Assembly: GCA_963739305.1 (NCBI GenBank) | Contig: CAVTZU010000022.1 | Coordinates: 1-41,614, forward strand | Length of the DNA: 41,614 nt | Origin: Candidatus Bathyarchaeota archaeon | GTDB lineage: Archaea > Thermoproteota > Bathyarchaeia > Bathyarchaeales > Bathycorpusculaceae | Direction: 5' to 3' | In this document: positions 1,041 through 28,391 of the stretch, piece after piece | How positions within the stretch are numbered: position 1 is the stretch's first letter | How the letters are laid out: the number at the start of each line of letters is the position of its first letter | The notes under the pieces: generated by a model | What the model was told of the DNA's origin: nothing | The model's database searches: none | The model's input: the letters and a program-made list of their open reading frames with translations, nothing else | Translations under genes and position numbers: made by a program

Positions 1041-1339
1041 GTAGCGCGCGTAAGAAGCGCGCGCACGAATGTGGCTATACGGCCACAACGGTCTATACAG
1101 ACCGTTTCGTTATACAGAGACTAATTCTCTGCATGCTACGAGGGGAGTGGAAAGGTTCAAGAAATTGCTAGATGATCTGGAAAACTGCCGATCTGGTACG
1201 CGCGCGCGATAGTCGTAAAAGAACCTGGAATAACGAGCTGGCTCAAAGGAGAAAGATGATATATCTGCTGGTTTTGCACAAATCCATTGGCGCGCGCTAC
1301 AAACGATAAGGGGTTTAAAAGGAAGAAGTATATTTTCAG

Positions 1340-2151
1340 ATGGGCAGACTTATGTCTACGGTGTACTTCTCCGAGAAAGTCAACAGGGAACACTTCGTTA
1401 ACAAGATCTTGGAGGTCTTTTCTGCGCCGTTGCAGAAGGCTAAGAAGGTTTTTGTAAAGCCCAACATTGTATCTTATGAGCCTTATCCGACTACCACTCA
1501 TCCAGAGGTTCTTGAAGCCGTTTTAAAGCGACTCGGCGGCTGCGAGTTAGTGGTCGGTGACGCGCCGGCTATTGACGCGGGCAGATCAAACAGGATTCTG
1601 CAGAAATCGCCTCTGAACGAAGTATGTAGTCGCTATGACGTTAAATTGATGAATTTGTATTCTGAGAAGATGAAGACCGTGCAGAGTCCAAGAGGCTACA
1701 AGGTTAAGGTATCAGCTCTGCCTCTTGCCTGCGACTTTGTCATTTCTCTTCCTGTTTTGAAAGTTCACGGGATGGTCGGTTTGAGCGGCTCCTTGAAGAA
1801 CCAGTTCGGCTACCTGAGCAGACAAGACAGATTTCTGATGCACTGCAAAGTAAAAAGCATAAACAAGGGGATAGCCGAAGTCAACGCCGCGGTCCCAACA
1901 AACCTGTTCATCGTCGACGCTGTGGAAACCATGATAAAAGCCCAGGAATGCAGACACGGAGGCTGCCCCGCCAAGTTAAACACAATGATCGCAGGCACTG
2001 ACCCAGTAAGCTTGGACCTTTTGGGCTAGAGCTTTTCAAAAGGTTGGAGCCAAAATTCGAAAATATAAAAAATCAAGCCTTGAAATACATCGAATATGCT
2101 TCCGACTATGGTTTGGGGATGAAAGATTTTACCGCAAAAGAAGTTCAATAA
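1340..2151 (+). CDS. DUF362-domain protein (Fe-S-associated family); frameshift near 2020
   Basis: Motifs VKPNIV, TTHPEV, ISLPVLKVH, SLKNQFG, DPVSLD; the C-terminus GLELFKRLE...YASDYGLG...EVQ* continues in another frame after the cttttggg run. Confidence 0.8.
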
Positions 2152-2233
2152 CAACGTTTGTTGCTTGTGTTCGCGCGCGCGAAACTAAATGTTTTATACA
2201 AATAGCGGGAAATAAGATTGGGAGAGATGAAGA

Positions 2234-2527
2234 ATGGTGGCCAACAATCACGTGCTGCTCAAATGGTCGAACATAATTGCCTTTGCATTTACAGTAATAG
2301 TAAACAGTTTGGCAGGCGGCACCACGCTTATAGGCGGAGTGAACACAGCTCAAATCTCTGATTCAAACCCTACATTGATTACCCCTGCAGGTTACGTGTT
2401 CTCCATATGGGGAGTAATCTATGTGTTGCCGGGCGTTTTCGTTATCTTCCAAGCTCTACCAAGCCAAAAAGAAAAAGAAATTCTTACTCTGAAAACCAAC
2501 AGAAAACAAACTGGGGACTCAGACTAA
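2234..2527 (+). pseudogene. Truncated TspO-like / tryptophan-rich sensory membrane protein
   Basis: N-terminal NSLA...ISD...TLITPAGYVFSIWGVIY motif typical of this longer multi-TM family; after two TM helices the frame runs into the repeat at 2476 and stops. Confidence 0.7.
2476..2525 (+). repeat. Cassette repeat R0 (~50 bp)
   Basis: AGAAATTCTTACTCTGAAAACCAACAGAAAACAAACTGGGGACTCAGACT; 39/50 identical to R1, ungapped. Confidence 0.75.
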
Positions 2528-2704
2528 AGCAGCAACCTAGGTTCTGTCTATACTAAAGAGTATGTAGTACAAAAGAAAAGTCAAAGTGCAGAACAGAAAA
2601 ACATTGGAATAGGCGATTCAAACTGGCTCAGAAAACTATCAACTATTACGTGCTATTTGTAACGGAAAAAACGATATGAAAATGGGGAAGGAGTTAGACT
2701 TCAG

Positions 2705-3788
2705 TTAAACTCTAAATAGGAAATTCCAGAGTTTTTTCCTTCTCCATAACATTTGGGACATACAAATTCTTTGAAGAGAATATGCTTCATTCTCCAATGC
2801 CCATCTTTTCTACAAGTGGATTTGTTCACATCTTGAACATCTAAATCCTTGCATAGTTTCTATTGAACCACCTTAATTGAAAAACTTCCCACATGTATTA
2901 CAGAGACATTTCTCCCAATTTTCTTGATGGTCTAATTGGAGCATCTGACCATCACCCCTCTGTATTATGGTTATAGTGTAAGAAGTGTTCATCGAATTTG
3001 AAGTCAAGTCTGATTAATGGTAGATAAACTAATTGTAAATTATTAATGCGAATGTTCCTCTCACTTATTTCACAGAGTTTTGTGTATCTCCTGCTATTTG
3101 CACGAGCTATATAGGAAACTTGTTTGGATTGCAATGCCTTGATTTGTCTCAGAGCAAGTTCTGCTTGAATTAACCACTTCATGAGATAACACCTTTCCAT
3201 CTGAATCTTCGTGCAGTTTTTCAAACCTAACCTCTTCACCGAAGTTCAGAAAGTCAGCAATACGAGGTTCTCTAAAATTAAGCAACATTCTCCTATGATT
3301 AACAAACTCATGATGAATTTGACCTATGGACGTCTTGAAACTTTGGTCAACACTATAATCTATCTCATGATATGAATGATAATGGATACTTCTCTTCACG
3401 CTGTTAGCCAACTCACTTGGAGGCTTAGGTGCTGAATCTAAAACCGAATCCAAATATCCTCCTAATCCAGCAATAGTTGAGTCAACTGACGGAACTGGAA
3501 ATGCCCAAACAGATATTTTCTCTTCTATACGACTTCTCTCAACTTCTTTCTTCCTATTCTCTTCACTATCTGCCTTCAAATGGTCTAAGAAGATATTCTC
3601 AACGTATCTGCACCATATTTTGGACCAAATATCTGAATCGCAGAATTCAAACTTTCGAGGCTATGTCTATGCCTTCTATGCGAAGCTCCTGCTACTGCCA
3701 CAGGTTCATCTATCCATGAATGGATGTCATCGCCACGAATACCATATCTCTTCTTTGAATGGAGACAATGTTCTTCATGGTCAGGCAT
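2705..3788 (-). pseudogene. Fragmented multidomain protein: His-rich DUF6915-like N-terminus, linker, Cys-rich zinc-ribbon C-terminus
   Basis: HCLHSKKRYG..IHSWIDE..HRRHRH..QIFG; a shift near 3603 joins VENIFLDHLKAD and ORF 3094-3579; C-terminal CNTCGK, CSRC and CPKC are spread over frames; stop at 2705. Confidence 0.55.
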
Positions 3789-3859
3789 TTTGTTGCCTCA
3801 GTCTGTTGCACTCATACATAGCTTGTGAAACTTTTTATGTCTTGCATATAATCAAAGAC

Positions 3860-3909
3860 AGAAATCTTTAATCTGCACAGCAACAGAAGACAAACTAGGG
3901 ATTCAAATT
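3860..3909 (+). repeat. Cassette repeat R1 (BRE/TATA-like + RBS-like module)
   Basis: AGAAATCTTTAATCTGCACAGCAACAGAAGACAAACTAGGGATTCAAATT. Confidence 0.9.
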
Positions 3910-4467
3910 GTCTCAGCAAATACCACGCTAACTTCGAGACTCAGAAAAGGCTTTCTCGTTGTTGGAATGGTTCTCTTGGTTATGGGTTTCTTCTTTTTCT
4001 ATCTGGCAAGTCGTGTGAATTGGGGTTATGTGACGACACATAATGATGCTGTAAATCTTTTTTATCCCTCTAGGATTTATCAAGATCCGCAATGGGGCCA
4101 ATCCTATGAATATTATGTTCGTCGTTTAGATATACAACCCAACGACTATTTCACGGTAAGCTATCCAGAATCTCAATATTCTCAGATTGGTGGAACAATT
4201 CGCATAGTCTTGAGAGGAATTACGGCGGATGCCAATGAAACGACATTGGCCTTCAATGGCTTTTTTATGTACTACACGAACAACCCGCCCTACGATTTTC
4301 CTTTTTTTGACGTGTATCTTGTTGCTTCAAACATACAAAATGTAACAGTATCATTAACAACTGAACTTGATCATTATGAAACACCACAATGGGCTTTTTT
4401 TGGCATTGGCATTGTTTTTTCTTCATTAGCAATGATTCCAATTTTCAAATCAAAAAAGTCAGCCTAA
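3907..4467 (+). CDS. Hypothetical membrane protein (N- and C-terminal TM helices flanking a soluble domain)
   Basis: ORF 3967-4467 is open upstream; hydrophobic segments at both ends; start is either ATT 3907 (end of R1) or ATG 3967. Confidence 0.7.
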   Translation: MVSANTTLTSRLRKGFLVVGMVLLVMGFFFFYLASRVNWGYVTTHNDAVNLFYPSRIYQDPQWGQSYEYYVRRLDIQPNDYFTVSYPESQYSQIGGTIRIVLRGITADANETTLAFNGFFMYYTNNPPYDFPFFDVYLVASNIQNVTVSLTTELDHYETPQWAFFGIGIVFSSLAMIPIFKSKKSA

Positions 4468-4511
4468 GCCATACCGTACAAAAGGCTCTAGTCAAACTGA
4501 AAGAGGATAGT

Positions 4512-4561
4512 AGAAATCTTTAATCTGCACAGCAACAGAAAACATCGTAGGGATTTGAATA
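4512..4561 (+). repeat. Cassette repeat R2
   Basis: First 29 nt identical to R1; 43/50 overall. Confidence 0.9.
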
Positions 4562-5101
4562 GAATCAGAAAGAGAATCTCGAATTGACTCTTGTTACGAG
4601 TGCTCAGTTAAAGATGGAGATCATTCTAAAAAGAAGGTATTTCGTTGTGAGCTGTGCGACAAGTGGTTCTGTGAGAAACACCGAAAACCCAAGTTTCCCG
4701 CGTTCGTGGACTGGGACACAATATCCGATGTTCAAGGCAACCCGACAATCAAGTTGGTGTTTTATAACGAATATAGGCGTAAAGATGGGCATTCTGACTT
4801 GATTTATTTTCGCAGGACAATTGAGGCTGAAGAACTTGATGAAAAAACAAGGACTCGATTGATAGCCCAAGCACTTGATAGAATGGAAGATGCTATCGCG
4901 AAGAGAGGACCAGAAGAAAAAGAGGGTCGATGGGTCATGATGGAAAATAAACATGGCAGAAGTTTTGAAGTGCCGCTTGAGGTCTATTCAAGTCCGCAAT
5001 ATCGAGAGTACCTTGAGAATGCTGAGACCGAGAAAAGTGTCAAAGCTATAGTAGATGAATATTACAGAAAGTATAAGAAAAAGAAACATTGGTGGCAATA
5101 A
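4559..5101 (+). CDS. AN1-like zinc-finger protein
   Basis: The frame of ORF 4706-5101 extends upstream to ATA 4559: ESERESRIDSCYECSVKDGDHSKKKVFRCELCDKWFCEKHRKP (CxxC...CxxCxxxFCxxH). Confidence 0.7.
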   Translation: MESERESRIDSCYECSVKDGDHSKKKVFRCELCDKWFCEKHRKPKFPAFVDWDTISDVQGNPTIKLVFYNEYRRKDGHSDLIYFRRTIEAEELDEKTRTRLIAQALDRMEDAIAKRGPEEKEGRWVMMENKHGRSFEVPLEVYSSPQYREYLENAETEKSVKAIVDEYYRKYKKKKHWWQ

Positions 5102-5149
5102 CATTAAATCTGCACAGCAATGAGAAGAATAACTAAGGGTCCAAAAATG
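5097..5149 (+). repeat. Cassette repeat R3
   Basis: Shares AATCTGCACAGCAA, AGAAGA and ACTAAGGG with R1; ends at ATG 5147. Confidence 0.75.
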
Positions 5150-5574
5150 AAGACGAGAATATTAATCATCATTGGTATTGCTGTGGTTATTGTAATAGGA
5201 CTCGTATTAACCGTATCAAGTCACACAGATGCAAAACCAGCTTTCTAATCTCAAGAGCTGAAGACAGAATTGAGAGCGCAAACGAGGACTATTCTCATCT
5301 ATAGTTCTGGCAAGATACGCCATATTTTGGTAACTATAGTCTTTTCAAGATGAACTGCACGATCTTTAACACTGGACTCAAAACAGCCCTAGGCACTTAT
5401 CTCGTCATGTTTTTCTACTTTGTCCAAAACGTACCGCCAGAAAGAAATCTACTAAGTCAAATAAATATCCAAGGGCGACAAAGTTACACGTACATCAACT
5501 TTCTTCTGGTTCATAATTTCACAGTTGGAAGAATGAGCTTGGAACCAGCTTGGGGAGACCGCAATCCAATCTAG
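5147..5574 (+). pseudogene. Disrupted membrane-anchored hypothetical protein
   Basis: MKTRILIIIGIAVVIVIGLVLTVSS signal anchor stops at 5248; the frame of ORF 5350-5574 can be joined with one frameshift and one TAG. Confidence 0.45.
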
Positions 5575-5600
5575 AAGAAGCGTACTGAAAACAAAAAGAC

Positions 5601-5648
5601 AGAAATCCTGTCTGAACAGCAACAAAAGACAAGCTAGTTCGGAACATT
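5601..5648 (+). repeat. Cassette repeat R4 (degenerate, no gene downstream)
   Basis: AAAGAC-AGAAATCCTGTCTGAACAGCAACAAAAGACAAGCTAG aligns to R1 with a 2-nt gap in the TATA-like part. Confidence 0.7.
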
Positions 5649-6051
5649 ATATCTTATTAGCGCGCGCGCACATGCCTTATTCCAAAGTAGGAAAAGTGTG
5701 GGATCATCAGTGAATCACTTCGAGATAGTATATATAATACTTTCAGACCCCCTCCCACCCCTCGAAATCACATCTAGCGTTTTTATGCACGTGTGCTAAT
5801 AATTCTGTTTTCTGAACGCCAGAAACGATAGATCATCGCGTATGAATAACATATTTCAAGTGCCAAAAAACCGTCTTTAACAAGTGTTTTTCTTGGCTTG
5901 CAAGTGATTAGATCATGAATTTTCATTGTCACTGCTTTGCTAATGATACGCCTATGTCACATCAACTTCATGTTTTGACAGAATAGAACAATAATCCATA
6001 GCAGTTAAATACTTTCTGAGGCTAGTACTAAACGAGGAAGGAGAGATTGGT

Positions 6052-7273
6052 CTGAAGCATAGACTATCGTCTCTGCTATCTGCGATACTAATAATTACAG
6101 CAGTATTGCTAGTCATTCACCAGCCTGGCTTTCTGCCGCCCAAAGTGGACGCTGCACCCACCACGATGACAGTGGACCCTCAAAACTCCACAGCCTACCT
6201 AAACGCCACGTTAAACATCAACATAACAGTAACAGACGTAACCAACATGGTCGGCTGGCAAATAACCGAACTGTACTACCTCAACTCCATTCTCAACTGC
6301 ACAAGCGCAACAGAAGGCCCATTTCTGACGAGCCTAGGCCTTACATTCCCCATTTTCGACATCCTCAACAATTTCAACAGCACACACGGACGCGTACGGG
6401 CAGCATCCGTCCTCTTAGGATCAGGCAACTCCGCAAACGGCACCGGCGTAATAGCAACACTCAATTTCACTGCCATCGCCACAGGCATGACCGCCAGTAA
6501 CACTCGGAGATACAATCCTGAAGGACAGCCAAAACCAAGACATCCCGCACACAACCATAAGCGGAAACGCAACGGTCACACTGGCACCAGATACAAGTCG
6601 TTGACGTCTACACGCAGCGCGGAGGCGTCGGAGCAAACGTGAGCAGCGACTCCTTTGCACCTGGAGAAACAATATTCTTCAACGCTTCCCTGATTTTCCA
6701 GGGAACACCTGTTCCCGGAATCATCGTCCAATTCATAACATATGACCCACATGGAACGCCAACAGCAAGAAATTCAGTCAGCGGACAGGACGGCGTTGCC
6801 GTTCTCAACGTCACTCTTCCATCCAGCCCGCTTTTCGGTAACTACGTCACCCTTGCCTCGGCAACGGTAAACGGCAACAGCTACAACGACACGGTCTCGT
6901 ACCAAGTGGGCTATATCATCAACATCGTACAGGCAATCGTCTGCAACTCCACGGGCGGCGCCCAAACACAATTTCCAAGGGGAAATCTGGCGTATCTCAA
7001 CGTGACCCTTGAGAACATAGCGTTCAACCCGAAGCAGCTTTTCCTCTTCAATCGGAGCAACCGACGCATCCGGCAACCCAGTCGGCGAAGAGTGGATCAG
7101 CTGCGCGATACCCGCGGGCAAAACCAGCTTCTTGATGGGGTTCCGGATACCCTATTGGGCCATTCCAGGCGTTGGACAAGCCTTCGTTGGAGCCTACAAC
7201 AACCCGCCCTGGGGCTGGAGGTTCAGCGTACTGCCCAGGACACTATCTGCCACTGTCGATATCAGGCGGTTGA
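6052..7273 (+). CDS. Secreted cohesin-domain protein with Ig-like modules (at least 4 apparent frameshifts)
   Basis: Signal peptide; cohesin-like INITVTDVTNMVGWQ...EGPFL...ANGTGVIATLNF; continues across frames as PVTLGDTIL, VDVYTQRGGVGAN, FRIPYWA, GGSAYCP; CTG start after GGAGAG is inferred. Confidence 0.6.
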
Positions 7274-7274
7274 A

Positions 7275-8291
7275 ATGACGAGAAACCATCGCAAAACGGG
7301 TTTCAAGCCCTTGCTCGTTCTTCTAGCCGCGGCCCTGACGCTGGCGATGATCAACGGAGCAGGCTCCGCAACGATTAGCATCACAGTAAACCCTGGCAAA
7401 CCGACCTACTACATAGGAGAACAGGGAACGATCTGGGGCAACGTGACCTTCTCCGCAGGTTTAGGAGGAGGCTTGATTCCGAACGCTATGGTGTCGATAG
7501 AAGTAGACAACTCGAACGGTGTACCCGTGATACTCAGGACCAGAACAACCGGGTCAACGCCCGAGCCCTCGACAATATGGATTCTAAGTGTAACACCGTG
7601 TGACCAGGTTGGAAACCCCAAGTACGTGTTCACAAACCAGACTCTTGCCTACTTCAAAGTCACACTGAACAACACTGACACCGCGCCGAAGTACGCCGAG
7701 ATAACGCTGAACATCTTTGACGCGAGAAACGTTGTATACGAGGCCTTCACAGCCTTCAAGGGCTTGCTAGTCAACGGCACAACGACTATGCTCTTCTCAG
7801 ATCCAATCCCGCAGGACATTTCCCCAGGAAACGCGACAGCATACGTGAACGTGTTCTCCGCGCTTCCGAGTGCCGGCGGATTCGCCTACTGCCTCGAACA
7901 ATCAACCGTTTTCTCCATAGTCGGCACTAGTCCCCCACCGTTGCCGACTCAGGAGCAACCTTTATCAGGCTTCTACAACCTCACCTTCCTCATAGACAAC
8001 TATCAGAGAACCAGAATGTTCCGCCCAGGAAACTACAGCGTCTCAGCAAACTGCAAGTACCAGACTGAAGTTGCCAACGCCACCGCAACGTTTGAAGTCG
8101 TCCTCAGGGGCGACATAAACCGCGATGGAACCGTCGACATCTACGATGCAATTATCCTGGCCGGTCATTTCAACGAGCATCAGCCGTGGATACACCCGGC
8201 GATAGATCCCAAGGTAGACCTCAACGGCGACGGCGCGATCGACATCTATGATGCAATAATACTCGCAAACAACTTCGGAAAAACCGCATAG
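7275..8291 (+). CDS. Secreted protein with C-terminal dockerin type I (duplicated Ca-binding loop)
   Basis: ATG 7275 followed by a signal peptide; GDINRDGTVDIYDAIILAGHF...DLNGDGAIDIYDAIILANNFG. Confidence 0.85.
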   Translation: MTRNHRKTGFKPLLVLLAAALTLAMINGAGSATISITVNPGKPTYYIGEQGTIWGNVTFSAGLGGGLIPNAMVSIEVDNSNGVPVILRTRTTGSTPEPSTIWILSVTPCDQVGNPKYVFTNQTLAYFKVTLNNTDTAPKYAEITLNIFDARNVVYEAFTAFKGLLVNGTTTMLFSDPIPQDISPGNATAYVNVFSALPSAGGFAYCLEQSTVFSIVGTSPPPLPTQEQPLSGFYNLTFLIDNYQRTRMFRPGNYSVSANCKYQTEVANATATFEVVLRGDINRDGTVDIYDAIILAGHFNEHQPWIHPAIDPKVDLNGDGAIDIYDAIILANNFGKTA

Positions 8292-8376
8292 GAGCATGTT
8301 TCACCGTGAGCAGTGTATCAAAAACTCGCAGAAAGCAGCGTGAAGTCCTCCTAAGGAGTGGTACGAACAGAGAAAA

Positions 8377-9395
8377 GTGAACGAATTGCCAAGAACACGA
8401 GTCTCAGCCACAGCACTAGCATTCCTGGTCATAATTCTAGCAGCCGTGACGCTGACCTCTGAAACAAGGGCAACAGACCCCACTACACTGCTCCAAATAA
8501 CTCCGCCTATGCATTTCGTTACGAGCCTAGTCGAAACCTTCAACGAAACCGTCACAATCTCAACCTCCGAACAAGTCAACAGCGTCAACTTCACGATAAC
8601 CTATAACTCTACTCTCCTCGACGTCGTCAACGTCAGTCAGGGCTCATTCTTCCCGCCAACACTTTCCGCCCACCTATTTCACGTACACGCAGGATTCAGC
8701 GGCCGGCACCATCAACATCGACGATGAACTCCTCGACCCACAAACCCAAACCGGAAACGGAACCTTAGCAACCGTGACATTCATACCGAAAATAGATCCC
8801 AAATCATTCGCCTTCACCCCAATAATGCTTAGTCAAATTCTGATCCTAAACGCCGTGCACCTGCCACTCACTTACGACACGCTCAACGCAATGTGCTTCT
8901 GGAAGTACCTGCCTCTTCCCCCGCCGCCCGCTACACCCAGACTAGTAGATGTCTACACGCAAAGAAGCGGAATAGGCCCGAACACCTACGGAGGCGAATT
9001 CGCGGCTGGCACAATGGTCATTCTCTCAGCCCAAGCAACATACAACGGCTATCCAGTCCAAAGCGTCCCCGTCGCCTTCCAAGTTCTAGACTCGAAGAAC
9101 CAAACAATCGCACTTCTGGTGGGCACGACAGACGAAAACGGAACCGCAACAACCCAATTCAGGATACGCTCCGACCAAAACGTCCAAGGAACATGGTGGG
9201 CCATCGCCTCAGTCGACATATCCTGCACAATCGTATGGGACACCGTCAACTTCACAGTCTTCTTCCTACTCCCCGTCGGAGGATACACGACAACTCCGCG
9301 TTAAAAACCCGGACCCAACGCCCCAATACATAGCCACAATAATCACGCTTGCCTTAGCAATGACACTGACGAAACGCAAACTACGCAAAAAATAG
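8377..9395 (+). CDS. Cohesin-like surface protein with C-terminal PVGG + TM + basic tail (frameshifted)
   Basis: Signal peptide; FTITYNSTLLDVVNVSQGSFF; GNGTLATVTF; VDVYTQRSGIGPN; PVGG; then IATIITLALAMTLTKRKLRKK* in another frame. Confidence 0.6.
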
Positions 9396-9480
9396 CAAAC
9401 TTCATGTGCAAAAAACTCATCCGACCACGCAAAGAACCAACCACGCATCCCCACCATACCCTCCACAAAAACCCGCCCAA

Positions 9481-9556
9481 GAAAAAAAGGCCGGGGGGTA
9501 GGGTGTTTTAGACTGTTTTCAACTCAAAACCCATGTTGACCAGGCCCGCACAGACC
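9481..9556 (+). repeat. G-tract dispersed element, copy 1
   Basis: GAAAAAAAGGCCGGGGGGTAGGGTGTTTTAGA (32 nt identical to the reverse complement of copy 2) ...CTCAAAACCCATGTTGACCAG...CAGACC. Confidence 0.9.
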
Positions 9557-9644
9557 CATAATCCTGATTCCAAAATCATAAAACTTACCAAACCCCCCAT
9601 CATACACACTATCACTCACCACACCACAACACGAGTGAAAACGA

Positions 9645-10034
9645 TTGTCCTTCGAAGACTGGCAGTACAGACAAGCCGAAAAAAACGCCCACAACGAAAT
9701 CCTAGCCTTCCTCGTCATCATCATGGGCATTAACCTCCTAGCAACCGGCCTGATAATCACGATCATGACAACCGGCCAACCCGTCCTCTTCCCCTACCCA
9801 CTCCCACAATTCATCAACCTGCCAATTGCCCTAGGATTCATACTCACCGACTCAGGCTTCGCCATAATCTTCGCAGGATTCGCCCTAAGCATACACTACG
9901 ACAAACAAAGATCATGGCACCTCACCGAAATCGACAAATCATCCAAACGCAAAAACTGGAAAGTAAACGTAAGAGCCACCGACGAAATCCTCGAAGAACT
10001 AAAAGAAGAAAAGAAAAAACCTAGCAGATCCTAA
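9645..10034 (+). CDS. Hypothetical membrane protein (2 TM)
   Basis: TTG start, two hydrophobic helices, charged C-terminus. Confidence 0.75.
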   Translation: MSFEDWQYRQAEKNAHNEILAFLVIIMGINLLATGLIITIMTTGQPVLFPYPLPQFINLPIALGFILTDSGFAIIFAGFALSIHYDKQRSWHLTEIDKSSKRKNWKVNVRATDEILEELKEEKKKPSRS

Positions 10035-10067
10035 ACAGCGTCCCCGTGGAAGCCAACCTCAACGAGC

Positions 10068-10268
10068 CTAATCGCTCCACTTCTCGATGAACAGCTTCTT
10101 CTCACCCTGCTTAAACATGACCCTCACAGGAATCGCATCCGTCCCCCTCTTCGTCTTCTTATACTCCTTGAACGGAAACATGCTGTCCTCAGCCAAATCC
10201 ACCGGGATATAAAGCAGATACTTCCCGTCTTTTCGCTTGAACAATCGACCTCTTCCCTCGCTAACCAT
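10068..10268 (-). CDS. Small conserved-type protein, possibly AbrB-like swapped-hairpin
   Basis: GAGGTGA RBS and ATTAAATA TATA upstream; GRLFKRKDGKYLLYIPVDLAEDSMFPF pattern. Confidence 0.7.
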   Translation of the reverse strand: MVSEGRGRLFKRKDGKYLLYIPVDLAEDSMFPFKEYKKTKRGTDAIPVRVMFKQGEKKLFIEKWSD

Positions 10269-10489
10269 TCGTTATCACCTCGATTACATCCTCAGTTTAA
10301 GACCTAAGCAGTACAAGCAGAATCTATTTAATCCTTGTCATCACACAAACCAAAAGCATAAAACAGACAGACACGCCACAAGAAAAAAACGCATCAAATG
10401 AAACAACAAAAGACAAAGCCGTTAGAATTAGAGACCAACCAAAAAAACACGGACAAACCTCAACACAGGCTTCTCCCTACAAGCGCCCG

Positions 10490-14471: not shown

Positions 14472-16391
14472 GTGCACGGAAATTCTGACAAGGACAAGGT
14501 CGAAATCAGCCAGTACATTCTAGAGCATGTGCCCAAAGAGGCTGAGGTCACAAGGATCGAGTACGAGGGCTCAACGCTGGCCGTCTACACCAAAAAGCCA
14601 GAAATCTTGGTGGATCAAAGCAGCGTCGTCGCCAACATAGTCAACGTCATAAGGAAACGAATAGTCATCCGTTCCGACCCTTCGGTAAGGCTCCAAGAAG
14701 TGGAAGCTGAAAAGATTTCAAGAGACATCATACCCGCAGAAGCAGAGGTAACTGACATAAACTTCGACCCAAGCTTGGGCGAAATCATCATAGACGCTAA
14801 GAAGCCTGGCCTCGTCATTGGCAAGAACGGTACAGTTCTTCAAGAGATAATCAAGCGCACCAAATGGCGCCCACACGTCCTCAGAAGCCCACCTTTGAAG
14901 TCAAAAATAATCACTCACATGCGGCATTATCTTCATTCAGAAAGCAAAGAGAGAGAAAGAGTCCTGCGAACCATAGGAGAAAGAATCTTCAGACCAAAAG
15001 CCTTTGAAGTTGGCGACGTCAGGATCACGGCGCTCGGAGCCGCCCAAGAAGTCGGCAGATCCGCGTTCCTCCTCCAAACCCGTGAAAGCAACGTACTCCT
15101 GGACTGCGGAGTCAACCCAGGTTCATCCAGACCGTTTGAAGCATTCCCGAGACTTGACAACCCCGGCTTCGAACTCGAATCCCTAGACGCCGTGGTGATA
15201 AGCCACGCCCACCTTGATCACTGCGGTCTGGTTCCCTTCTTGTACAAATACGGCTACGACGGCCCAGTGTACTGCTCCGCTCCCACATCAAACATGATGA
15301 CGCTTCTCCAACTGGACTATCTGGACGTAGCAGGAAAGCAGGGTACAACCCCATTCTACGACCAAAAAGACGTTAGAGAATGCGTCTTGCACACTCTTCC
15401 CCTAAGATACGGAGTCGTGACGGACATTGCCCCAGACGTTAGGCTAACTCTGCACAACGCTGGCCACATACTCGGTTCTGCAATGGTTCACCTCCACGTA
15501 GGCGAAGGCCTCCACAACGTCGTCTACACCGGAGACTACAAATTCTCCAGAACGATGCTCCTTGAAGCCGCAGCCACAGAGTTCCCCAGAGTAGAAACCG
15601 TCATAACCGAGAGCACTTACGGCGGACCAGATGACATCATGCCCTCTCGAGTTGAAGCCGAGGAACGGTTGACAAGAATCGTAAACGAAACCCTGGAACG
15701 CAAAGGAAAAGTCTTGATACCCGTGCCGGCGGTCGGCAGAGCACAGGAAATAATGCTCATACTGGACGGTTACATGAAAAGAGGAATGATGAAAGAGGCT
15801 CCAGTGTTCATCGAAGGAATGATCTCAGAGGCAACCGCAATTCACACAGCATACCCTGAATACCTTGGAAGAGAAGTCAGAAACAGCATACTTCACGACG
15901 GAGTCAACCCCTTCCAATCCGACTACTTCACGATCGTGGAACATCCCAGCGTGCGACAGGAAATAATCGAAGGAGAACCATGCATCATAATGGCCACCTC
16001 AGGAATGCTTGAAGGCGGACCAGTCATCGAGTACTTCAAAAGTTTGGCGGACAACGAGAATAACACAATTGTTTTCGTCAGCTACCAAATCGAAGGCACG
16101 ATGGGCAGGAGAGTTCAGAAAGGTTTGAATGAAGTCACCGTTATGACTTCCGAAGGAAAAATGGACGTTGTGAGAGCCCGACTGCGTGTTGAATCAATAG
16201 AAGGCTTCTCTGGGCACTCTGACAGGCGGCAGATTTTCAACTACATCATGCATTTGAGACCGAAACCGGAGAGAGTGGTCGTGTGCCACGGCGAAAGAGC
16301 GAAGTGTCTCAGCATGGCCAATTTCATAGAAAGAAGATGTGAAATCAGATCATTCGCGCCAGCCTTGATGGAGACGTTCAGGCTGCTGTAG
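14472..16391 (+). CDS. fttA: aCPSF1/FttA beta-CASP ribonuclease with KH domains
   Basis: KH KPGLVIGKNG; MBL SHAHLDH; AGHILGSA; GFSGHSD; conserved adjacency to psmB. Confidence 0.96.
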   Translation: MHGNSDKDKVEISQYILEHVPKEAEVTRIEYEGSTLAVYTKKPEILVDQSSVVANIVNVIRKRIVIRSDPSVRLQEVEAEKISRDIIPAEAEVTDINFDPSLGEIIIDAKKPGLVIGKNGTVLQEIIKRTKWRPHVLRSPPLKSKIITHMRHYLHSESKERERVLRTIGERIFRPKAFEVGDVRITALGAAQEVGRSAFLLQTRESNVLLDCGVNPGSSRPFEAFPRLDNPGFELESLDAVVISHAHLDHCGLVPFLYKYGYDGPVYCSAPTSNMMTLLQLDYLDVAGKQGTTPFYDQKDVRECVLHTLPLRYGVVTDIAPDVRLTLHNAGHILGSAMVHLHVGEGLHNVVYTGDYKFSRTMLLEAAATEFPRVETVITESTYGGPDDIMPSRVEAEERLTRIVNETLERKGKVLIPVPAVGRAQEIMLILDGYMKRGMMKEAPVFIEGMISEATAIHTAYPEYLGREVRNSILHDGVNPFQSDYFTIVEHPSVRQEIIEGEPCIIMATSGMLEGGPVIEYFKSLADNENNTIVFVSYQIEGTMGRRVQKGLNEVTVMTSEGKMDVVRARLRVESIEGFSGHSDRRQIFNYIMHLRPKPERVVVCHGERAKCLSMANFIERRCEIRSFAPALMETFRLL

Positions 16392-28218: not shown

Positions 28219-28296
28219 GGTCTGGGCTAGGGACTGGTCAACATGGTTTTTGAGTGTTTTCAGCTCTAAAACACCCTACCCCCCGGCCTTTTTTTC
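28219..28296 (-). repeat. G-tract dispersed element, copy 2 (inverted)
   Basis: Reverse complement GAAAAAAAGGCCGGGGGGTAGGGTGTTTTAGAGCTGAAAACACTCAAAAACCATGTTGACCAGTCCCTAGCCCAGACC. Confidence 0.9.
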
Positions 28297-28391
28297 TCAG
28301 AAGGAGCTGCTTTTGGGTTTTTCGGTAATCCTTTGGGCGGTGCTGGTGGTGGTTTCCGTGCAGTTTCCGATGTTGCTCCTGTGCTTTCGGT

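Follow-up and report, generated by a model that had tools for sequence, protein, structure and literature searches.

Short conserved units that stand before unrelated genes have been described in several systems. In T4-type phages, promoter-early stem-loop (PeSL) units, consisting of a promoter, a stem-loop, a Shine-Dalgarno (SD) sequence, and a start codon, precede ORFans in hyperplastic regions; according to the parts of the two reports used here, these units shuffle by homologous recombination, and mini-circles have been shown physically (PMC2839356, PMC4122927). Putative mobile promoters are stretches of 50 nt or more that share 80% identity or more and lie upstream of non-paralogous genes, both in one genome and between taxa; how they move is unknown (PMC3575422). 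Here we analyze a repeat, named module A, which occurs five times in a 41,614-nt contig of a Candidatus Bathyarchaeota archaeon (CAVTZU010000022.1 of assembly GCA_963739305.1; this whole stretch is referred to as the window). Module A is a unit of 55–65 nt that comprises a predicted promoter, a ribosome-binding site (RBS), and a start codon. Taken as a whole, the analysis leads us to favor, with some reserve, the reading that module A is the self-contained archaeal expression head of portable single-gene cassettes.

Bathyarchaeia occur abundantly in peat and sediment; few of them have been cultured, and to our knowledge there is no genetic system for them. Full-text searches limited to one literature collection returned no description of the module in Bathyarchaeia or in archaea. 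A preliminary description of the repeats, made from the sequence of the window, had proposed an integron-like array of unrelated genes separated by portable promoter/RBS units that were likened to PeSL.

The module A family and its cargo genes

All five direct repeats, at 2476, 3860, 4512, 5097, and 5601 (R0 to R4), were confirmed at the sites given in the preliminary description, as were the identities reported for them: in ungapped comparison R2 (4512) matches R1 (3860–3909) at 43/50 positions, and R0 (2476) matches R1 at 39/50. R3 matches R1 at 27/50 positions at register 5097, with an exact 14-mer in common at 5107, and the core of R4 (5611–5637) matches R1 at 24/27 positions given a 2-nt register shift. 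A 37-nt core with no more than 10 substitutions was found at 4 places in the window and at 0 in each of 100 Markov-1 resamples. A whole-genome nhmmer search with the family profile recovered all five window copies, with E values of 3.9e-17, 6.1e-12, 2.9e-4, 2.1e-3, and 7.5e-3, and a covariance model detected them with E values of 5e-19 to 4e-5. The repeat, first given as ~50 bp, is real, but the conserved unit is longer, covering ~3852–3916 and extending into the first codons.

The repeat was sought in the genome and in related metagenome-assembled genomes (MAGs) and turned out to be part of a family found across the lineage. In the genome of the window (G000; 2.32 Mb in 36 contigs), 15 places match a profile based on ten copies, the next match having an E value of 2.2. 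Five of these copies lie in the window, two each on contigs C23 and C32, and one each on C1, C15, C18, C20, C26, and C28. Using a sequence-only covariance model, module A was found in 8/11 genomes of the genus with 3–18 copies each (15 in G000, 18 in G001, 12 each in G002 and G008, 6 each in G004 and G005, 4 in G010, and 3 in G009); the model found no copy in G003, G006, and G007, which are 89, 83, and 65% complete. Elsewhere in the order the model matches 3/120 other genomes, one from another genus of the same family and two from one genus of another family. Among genomes of 185,579 species, 22 stretches fit a strict degenerate pattern; 21 of them are in Bathyarchaeia/Bathyarchaeota MAGs, mostly from peat, and one is in a Melioribacteraceae MAG. 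At least 120 metagenome stretches carry the module A pattern. In a DNA-level comparison of the first 9 kb of the window with five genomes of the genus, the best-kept stretch was the module with the sequence close to it; the other matches were confined to a dockerin repeat and a short piece near 1215.

Copy identity is 0.799 within genomes versus 0.820 between genomes, a difference reached in 989/1000 permutations, although this comparison is biased upwards by the copies that were recruited with the pattern. Because within-genome identity is not above between-genome identity, one consensus appears to be kept by selection or by a shared pool, with no homogenization within genomes. Concerted evolution was rejected on the same ground.

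The layout of module A is that of an archaeal promoter, an SD sequence, and a start codon at the spacing usual for this genome, which agrees with the promoter/RBS assignment of the preliminary description. In order, the module has a purine-rich run, a TATA-like word at –42, 24 near-invariant bases, CTAG, a G-run at –11 to –8, an A-rich spacer, and an ATG that is commonly followed by AGT GAA, with AGT GA present in most full copies. Over 160 distinct copies, the information content stays within 1.03–2.0 bits throughout columns 9–47 and shows no three-base periodicity; the sole values under 1.2 bits are those of column 18, where A and T split, and column 28. Among 827 open reading frames (ORFs) of G000 with an unambiguous ATG, SD-like words peak at –13 to –10 and TATA-like words, more weakly, at –49 to –37. 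The TATA-like word at –42 and the G-run at –11 match these genome peaks, so that the geometry of the module is normal for a promoter followed by a short leader. The archaeal TATA box is centered ~26–27 nt before the transcription start site; from this spacing, transcription should start at CTAG, ~13 nt before the ATG.

No fold is common to the copies. RNAalifold predicted 0 pairs for 18 copies, no inverted repeat common to copies was found, and the DNA-fold z-scores of four window copies (–0.96, 0.14, –1.0, and –1.1) show no difference from shuffles. The remaining copy, R3, has a DNA-fold z-score of –2.4 (3/200 shuffles were as good), and its stem is absent from the other copies. The absence of an attC-like palindrome, noted earlier, is thus borne out by the lack of a conserved hairpin in the module. 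A protein-coding function was rejected: the frame is open into the ATG, but there is no period of three and no common upstream start codon.

A second conserved element of ~45 nt, module B, lies directly upstream of module A in 9/160 copies and recurs 3' of module-headed genes in G001, G002, G005, and G008. Further module B sites are found at positions 8180–8225 of locus L028 and at 5736–5793 and 16155–16215 of locus L033. Module B has no T-run and no convincing hairpin. A third conserved piece of ~28 nt was observed directly 5' of module A at ~135860–135888 of C18, ~97950–97978 of C20, and ~7227–7255 of locus L030.

The genes that follow module A are unrelated, as the preliminary description had proposed from the window. 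An ORF of at least 30 codons is found within 130 nt of 143/160 copies, and these 143 ORFs fall into 100 protein clusters, of which 91 are singletons. In view of the 100 clusters, the repeat was rejected as the 5' end of one paralogous gene family. Module A was also rejected as a miniature inverted-repeat transposable element, having no inverted ends and facing such an ORF in 143 of its 160 copies. The ORF starts coincide with the 3' end of the module, 53 being at exactly module position 58 and 77 at positions 57–59; 105/143 ORFs start with ATG, and 45 begin with Met-Ser-Glu. Cargo proteins have a median length of 99 aa (range 30–456). The largest clusters are an N-terminally anchored coiled-coil protein (23), 57-aa zinc ribbons (8), and the family with two transmembrane (TM) segments to which the cargo of R1 belongs (6). 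Five of 20 representatives score above the Pfam cut-off (GOLD/EMP24, AN1+CAP, RusA, CBM96, and HEPN_AbiV), and the other 15 gave no match or coiled-coil noise. In G001, a module-headed AN1+CAP protein matches zf-AN1 with 47.5 bits. An Atlas look-up of the commonest cargo returned only "hypothetical protein" clusters from Bathyarchaeota and Thermoproteota. The cargos of R1 and R2 are not homologous, as judged by tblastn against the compared loci.

Units of module plus gene sit in unrelated places of different genomes and not before syntenic core genes, in line with the portability proposed for them. Cargos that are ~87–94% identical at the DNA level have both flanks at random-level score (e.g. 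c003/c022 and c035/c090), and cassette pairs in unrelated flanks are ~85–94% identical; the re-sited examples are two zinc-ribbon cassettes and a 72-aa membrane protein. In 12 aligned pairs the homology starts at module column 2–16, with columns 7–9 in seven, and in 5/12 its end falls between –3 and +11 nt relative to the stop codon. No target-site duplication was seen at the borders of aligned cassette pairs when these were inspected by eye, which is not a formal test.

Cargo content also varies at syntenic sites. Behind an orthologous tyrosine-recombinase gene there is a copy in both G002 and G000, with a two-TM cargo in the former and an anchored coiled-coil cargo in the latter, so that the gene content between repeats is not fixed. 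In G000, a cassette on C15 follows a gene for an ATP-binding cassette (ABC) permease, and none was seen there in four relatives that have the orthologous gene; a fifth relative has no match to the permease gene. At this gene the DNA of G000 and G001 is 92% identical and diverges 35 nt past the stop codon. This site without the unit, together with the unrelated flanks of the re-sited cassettes, shows that module A is not simply the promoter of syntenic core genes.

Cassettes also occur in rows. A set of 80 metagenome loci contains 113 copies, with two to four copies in 23 loci. Adjacent copies share a strand in 31 pairs, against 2 pairs with opposite strands, and their spacing is 224–1989 nt apart from one pair at 10,665 nt. 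In the 22/137 cases with another copy following, the distance from the stop codon to the core of the next copy is –3 to +77 nt. Copies of module A are truncated at many different points.

A proposed expression head and its alternatives

In the reading that we prefer, the purine-rich run would serve as a transcription factor B recognition element (BRE) and would form the promoter together with the TATA-like word 42 nt before the start codon. The 24-nt spacer, no less invariant than the TATA word, probably functions as the operator for a putative regulator specific to this lineage. Transcription would proceed from CTAG ~13 nt ahead of the ATG, the G-run (–11 to –8) would act as the SD sequence, and the unit ends in the ATG, commonly with AGT GAA. 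In one lineage of peat and sediment Bathyarchaeia, no fewer than 100 unrelated small accessory genes stand behind this head; they encode anchored coiled-coil proteins, small membrane proteins, zinc ribbons and, in a few cases, defense-like or DNA-repair-like proteins. Head and ORF together behave as a cassette that is gained, lost, re-sited, and stacked head-to-tail. The simplest mechanism for this would be homologous recombination between head copies, as in T4-type PeSL, without a dedicated recombinase. The promoter/RBS assignment, which is a prediction, and the portability are supported by the geometry and the comparative evidence. The more specific proposal of a recombinase-free cassette system, in which the head would be both an expression signal and a portable homology giving rise to circles, to exchange between species and families, and to head-to-tail stacking, is put forward tentatively, as one with a real but minority chance of being correct.

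Several points weigh against this reading. Promoter activity and the transcription start are predictions from geometry. The 24-nt spacer is conserved like the TATA word, which is unusual for a plain promoter and would equally fit an RNA-level leader, and 13/160 copies have a further conserved stretch of ~28 nt upstream with its own TATA-like word. Recruitment by the strict pattern inflates the apparent conservation at columns 19–48 as well as the between-genome identity. In 7/12 aligned pairs the homology does not end close to the stop codon, two pairs running into the next module or the downstream flank and four stopping well inside the cargo, and several pairs end just past the stop codon with no following head, which is not predicted by a simple single-crossover model. 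Homologous recombination through the head is the simplest candidate mechanism; the junctions are heterogeneous, and ordinary illegitimate events may do much of the work. Finally, part of the decay seen in the window may be assembly error, contigs from peat showing 1-nt indels elsewhere too.

The integron-like explanation would make the repeat the attachment site of a dedicated site-specific recombinase encoded elsewhere, with cassettes captured as circles. It would account for the co-oriented rows of short single-gene units (31 pairs versus 2) and for re-sited cassettes with borders at the repeat, and on both G000 C26 and G002 C5 a copy does have a tyrosine-recombinase gene 0.7–1 kb upstream, the cargo being different. 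However, the repeat has no hairpin or palindrome, marks the 5' end of each gene, and includes the predicted promoter, and the junctions at –3 to +77 nt and the many truncation points provide no fixed crossover point. Nor was a tyrosine recombinase consistently adjacent to the copies. PF00589 has 15 matches in G000, with 0/15 on this contig; the C26 copy has one of them at a distance of 1 kb, and the C28 copy has a weak one at 2 kb. In the closed genome G001 0/9 matches lie within 5 kb of any of the 18 copies. The serine recombinase family PF00239 has no match in G000, other recombinase and transposase families not having been searched; the earlier statement that the window encodes no recombinase holds for these two families. 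The PF00589 searches of G000 and G001 did not place an IntI-type recombinase beside the array, the IntI-specific domain not having been tested. We consider this explanation very improbable, and the recombinase-driven part of the preliminary description was not upheld. A plain regulon, in which a regulator and the basal machinery keep the module while genes move by ordinary island turnover with the module uninvolved, is unlikely but deserves attention. It is consistent with one consensus across ~12 species without within-genome homogenization, with conservation that is flat and high over the whole block, and with the heterogeneous junctions; small early genes of archaeal viruses likewise share a BRE/TATA sequence to which, in the part of the report considered here, a winged helix-turn-helix (wHTH) repressor is thought to bind (PMC11065993). 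Nevertheless, most pairs have homology that starts at the 5' edge of the module, the tightest pairs have unrelated flanks, and the first two codons move together with the module, nucleotide for nucleotide. By itself, a regulon leaves unexplained how 100 unrelated genes came to have the same 60 nt.

A viral or plasmid origin, with the copies being early-gene promoters of integrated mobile elements and the chromosomal copies their remnants, would fit the location of copies in low-GC patches and a cargo that includes RusA and HEPN_AbiV. In a by-eye reading of translations, some G001 copies are close to virus-like structural or packaging-type ORFs, a restriction-modification-type gene, or tRNA-like stretches. 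G124, a genome from another family, has two diverged copies in a 9.3-kb integrase island that splits genes adjacent in G000, and the patchy occurrence outside the genus (the 3/120 other genomes of the order) suggests transfer. Yet none of 2.9 million IMG/VR contigs contains the exact pattern, and homologues of the C28-type integrase are 8–31 kb from the nearest copies in G001 and G002. Several copies stand alone between conserved chromosomal genes, e.g. on C15 and C23. Within the G124 island only 1/16 gene starts has a head-like sequence upstream, and module A was rejected as the general promoter of that island. We judge this origin to be quite improbable. The remaining alternative places transcription upstream and makes the block an unstructured, A-rich 5' leader, bound by a protein or a small RNA, or a translation enhancer. 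The block is indeed purine-rich and unstructured, its spacer is conserved as strongly as the TATA-like word, its conservation extends into the first codons, and a subset of copies has the additional upstream piece bearing a TATA-like word. But in the aligned pairs the sequences upstream of column 2–16 are unrelated, and peat contigs diverge before 3853/3854, so that no shared promoter would be present, and the TATA-like word and the G-run are exactly at the promoter and SD peaks of this genome. We give the RNA leader very little credence.

Two side observations concern the compared loci. The G124 island is a low-GC stretch at ~1200–10400 of locus L188 (G124:C4), and the genes that it splits adjoin in G000 at ~36066 of C11. 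At locus L034 (G002:C5) the last ~35 nt of a tyrosine-recombinase gene (~7970–8010) are repeated ~400 nt downstream (~8370–8410); the two stretches flank a small minus-strand gene, and this looks like an attachment-site duplication.

A 60-nt head marking more than 100 unrelated small genes provides a sequence handle on the flexible gene pool of this lineage. There is a precedent for such a handle in the early-promoter motifs used to find anti-defense genes in the viruses of archaea. For expression work, module A is also a candidate for a strong native promoter with a ribosome site, and it is a case for studying promoter reuse and cassette shuffling in a cellular archaeal chromosome.

The array in the window

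The array sits in a 3.2-kb, low-GC, apparently decaying island that starts at a truncated membrane-protein gene. The GC content is 0.365–0.398 across 2001–6000 versus 0.44–0.54 in the flanks, and the island covers ~2470–5800. It contains two good and three decayed copies of module A (R1 and R2 are well kept, R3 is without its 5' part, and R0 and R4 are degenerate) together with cargo genes that have damaged or non-canonical starts. The view of the locus as an array of cassettes stands for R1–R3, which precede ORFs, but not for the stretch from R0 to R1, which consists of minus-strand ORFs with no cassette. Similarly, the BRE/TATA and RBS parts ascribed to the repeat are seen in the family, but R3 is without the BRE/TATA part.

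The truncated gene at the left of the island (2234–2470, plus strand) is a 5' fragment with ~78 codons of a multi-pass membrane protein of ~270 aa, its ORF reading through R0 to a stop at 2527. By tblastn, only residues 20–93 of a full-length paralogue (C21 8170–8979, 270 aa) match at this gene, and the homology stops at ~2467–2470, where R0 starts. A tblastn search with the paralogue found no C-terminal remnant anywhere in the genome, and the truncated gene has no Pfam match. R0 itself (2468–2532, plus strand; nhmmer E 7.5e-3, covariance model E 4.4e-5) has no cargo ORF and forms the left border of the island. It is followed by ~1.1 kb of minus-strand ORF fragments (2701–3788), at 3585–3788, 3094–3579, 2952–3239, 2873–3007, and 2701–2829. 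The first of these matches DUF6915 with an E value of 6.7e-6 and 26.6 bits, under the cut-off of 27; ORFs 3094–3579, 2952–3239, and 2701–2829 have no Pfam match. None of the minus-strand ORFs has a homologue among the other compared loci.

R1 (3852–3916, plus strand; covariance model E 5.1e-19) is a full module A with the purine-rich BRE-like run, the TATA-like word, the 24-nt invariant spacer, CTAG, the G-run, and the start. Its cargo 1 (3908–4467, plus strand) encodes a two-TM membrane protein; the TTG at 3908 is out of frame with the body, and the intact ORF is 3967–4467. In tblastn searches cargo 1 is 46% identical to C23 30755–31273 and 41% identical to the G002 C5 copy, both also behind module A, and a separate search of the genome contigs for loci related to cargo 1 found none. 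In peat run X4, two contigs (34.5 of 40.1 depth) are without 2 nt at 3925, a difference that would bring the TTG into frame, and the frame break in cargo 1 may be strain-specific or an assembly error. A module B of ~45 nt (4458–4509, plus strand; nhmmer E 7.3e-14) stands between cargo 1 and R2.

R2 (4504–4568, plus strand; covariance model E 1.4e-13) is a full module A in which the start position is no longer ATG. Cargo 2 (4559–5101, plus strand) is a 180-codon open frame with a Cys-rich N terminus, and its first in-frame canonical start is GTG 4706, past the finger. The AN1-like zinc finger proposed for it stands as a weak likeness but not as a family assignment, zf-AN1 matching with an E value of 0.0038 and 17.8 bits versus a cut-off of 27.9; an Atlas look-up of cargo 2 yielded nothing informative. 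R3 (5089–5154, plus strand; nhmmer E 2.9e-4; covariance model 5098–5151, E 3.9e-6) is truncated at its 5' end, the BRE/TATA part being replaced by the end of cargo 2, whose stop codon is at 5099–5101. Module A copies with this type of 5' truncation are also found behind other cargos elsewhere. Cargo 3 (5147–5248, plus strand) is a 33-codon ORF from the module ATG (+59) with one hydrophobic helix (TM 1–29) and has no homologue among the compared loci. R4 (5593–5655, plus strand; covariance model E 2.0e-5) is degenerate and marks the right end of the island, with a GCGCGCGC run following at 5661; no ORF starts at this module, as previously described. Rfam at the gathering threshold and ARAGORN found nothing in the window.

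Other repeats were observed at and around the island. GCGCGCGC occurs 359 times in the genome versus ~46 expected from base composition, and it is present at several island or synteny borders, including 2170–2180 and 5661–5669 of the window and ~50290 of C15. A short GCGCGCGC-ended stretch at 1207–1298 matches several places in related genomes and three further G000 contigs at 84–87%. A separate family of intergenic repeats of 70–125 nt, represented in the window at ~9425–9560 and 28219–28297, occurs at ~27 places in G000 on both strands, with a summed peat-contig depth of 380–820.

The left flank of the island is duplicated in the assembly. Contig C16 closes with 2474 bases (58839–61312) that share 99.15% identity with positions 1–2473 of the window, and C16 ends exactly at the start of R0, at the homologue of window position 2473. 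This near-identity and a bin contamination of 7.8% point to two strains in the bin, with the assembly broken at the repeat. Contigs C12 and C21 are likewise near-duplicates, and the bin seems to hold two strains. To the right of the island, a 149-nt intergenic stretch (5669–5817) is 91% identical to C16 49413–49558, 9 kb before the end of that contig. The DUF362 gene and the truncated membrane-protein gene of the left flank were not found in five relatives at the thresholds used, and the locus of the window is therefore not comparable across species.

In four peat runs, the summed contig depth is 415–2093 over the bin that contains R1 (3675–4008) versus 3–50 in the adjoining bins. The similarity of the peat contigs at R1 has sharp borders at 3853/3854 and 3898/3907, and beyond the border the contigs continue with a consensus whose first part is the start codon and two more codons. 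Bins 2673–3674 and 4677–5678 have a summed depth of 0–14 versus 15–90 in the flanks, the uncovered part not being a finding in itself. Some contigs join distant positions, e.g. 3907 to ~4465 and 2602 to ~3853, with unknown content between the sides and short sides of 20–30 nt; these joints were rejected as deletions and are read instead as other cassettes of the family. Compared with the window, peat contigs have single-base deletions at 6494, 6590, 7046, 7216, 8658, 8660, and 9298. These fall inside large dockerin-bearing ORFs (6106–8291 and beyond) that look frameshifted in the window, which suggests assembly indel errors or a decaying gene. In view of such indels, the frame break of cargo 1 may stem from the assembly, which is a less likely source of the substitutions and truncations in the array.

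Relation to known systems

As far as is known, most integron cassettes do not have promoters. Integrons and clusters of attC sites lacking integron-integrases (CALIN), including archaeal ones, resemble module A in their tandem, co-oriented rows of short ORFs with a repeat and variable cargo, so far as the relevant parts of the source describe them (PMC9668308). In the same source, cassettes are joined at folded attC sites by IntI, whereas module A has no fold, had no IntI beside it in the PF00589 searches, lies at the 5' end of the gene, and carries the predicted promoter. Module A thus forms co-oriented tandem rows without attC folding, and it fails the defining tests of integrons.

The early-gene sequence of archaeal viruses is similar to module A in being a BRE/TATA-type regulatory sequence placed before many small, mostly single, unrelated hypothetical genes, and in both cases binding by a repressor is envisaged, as far as the consulted part of that report goes (PMC11065993). 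The viral sequence is found in Sulfolobales viruses and, in that part of the report, its immediate-early expression is documented by transcript data; in contrast, module A is chromosomal in Bathyarchaeia, is known from its sequence, and has no IMG/VR match to its exact pattern. Module A also corresponds to the identity level used for putative mobile promoters, R1 and R2 agreeing at 43/50 positions before non-homologous cargos and R1 being 98% identical to the C15 copy over 54 nt. The mobile-promoter survey covered only –150 to –50 and removed cases that reach into coding sequence, and a unit at –57 to +8 would have been missed (PMC3575422). Most families in that survey are pairs, whereas module A has 3–18 copies per genome and occurs in rows.

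The analogy with T4-type PeSL that was drawn in the preliminary description is apt, module A being a portable unit that precedes unrelated genes. To the extent covered by the parts of the PeSL reports used here, both are short conserved units made up of a promoter (predicted in the case of module A), an SD sequence, and the start codon of the gene that follows; both recur before unrelated, ORFan-type small genes in the most variable regions; and in both, relatives differ by insertions, deletions, and replacements whose borders lie at the unit. Specifically, module A has the SD sequence and start codon at its 3' end, with the ORF starting at positions 57–59 in 77/143 cases, and its setting is variable, as judged by the low-GC patches, the 91/100 singleton clusters, and the unit-bounded differences. 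The two differ in the nature of their signals. PeSL has, in the same parts of those reports, a sigma-70 promoter and a stem-loop terminator and resides in phage genomes, whereas module A is of the archaeal BRE/TATA type, has no stem-loop terminator, and resides in an archaeal chromosome. Unlike in PeSL as described there, the first two codons belong to the unit in module A, and the PeSL mini-circles were seen physically whereas module A is read here from DNA. If the recombinase-free cassette system tentatively put forward above is real, it would be a cellular archaeal counterpart of phage PeSL shuffling and would offer a ready way to express newly acquired or newborn small genes.

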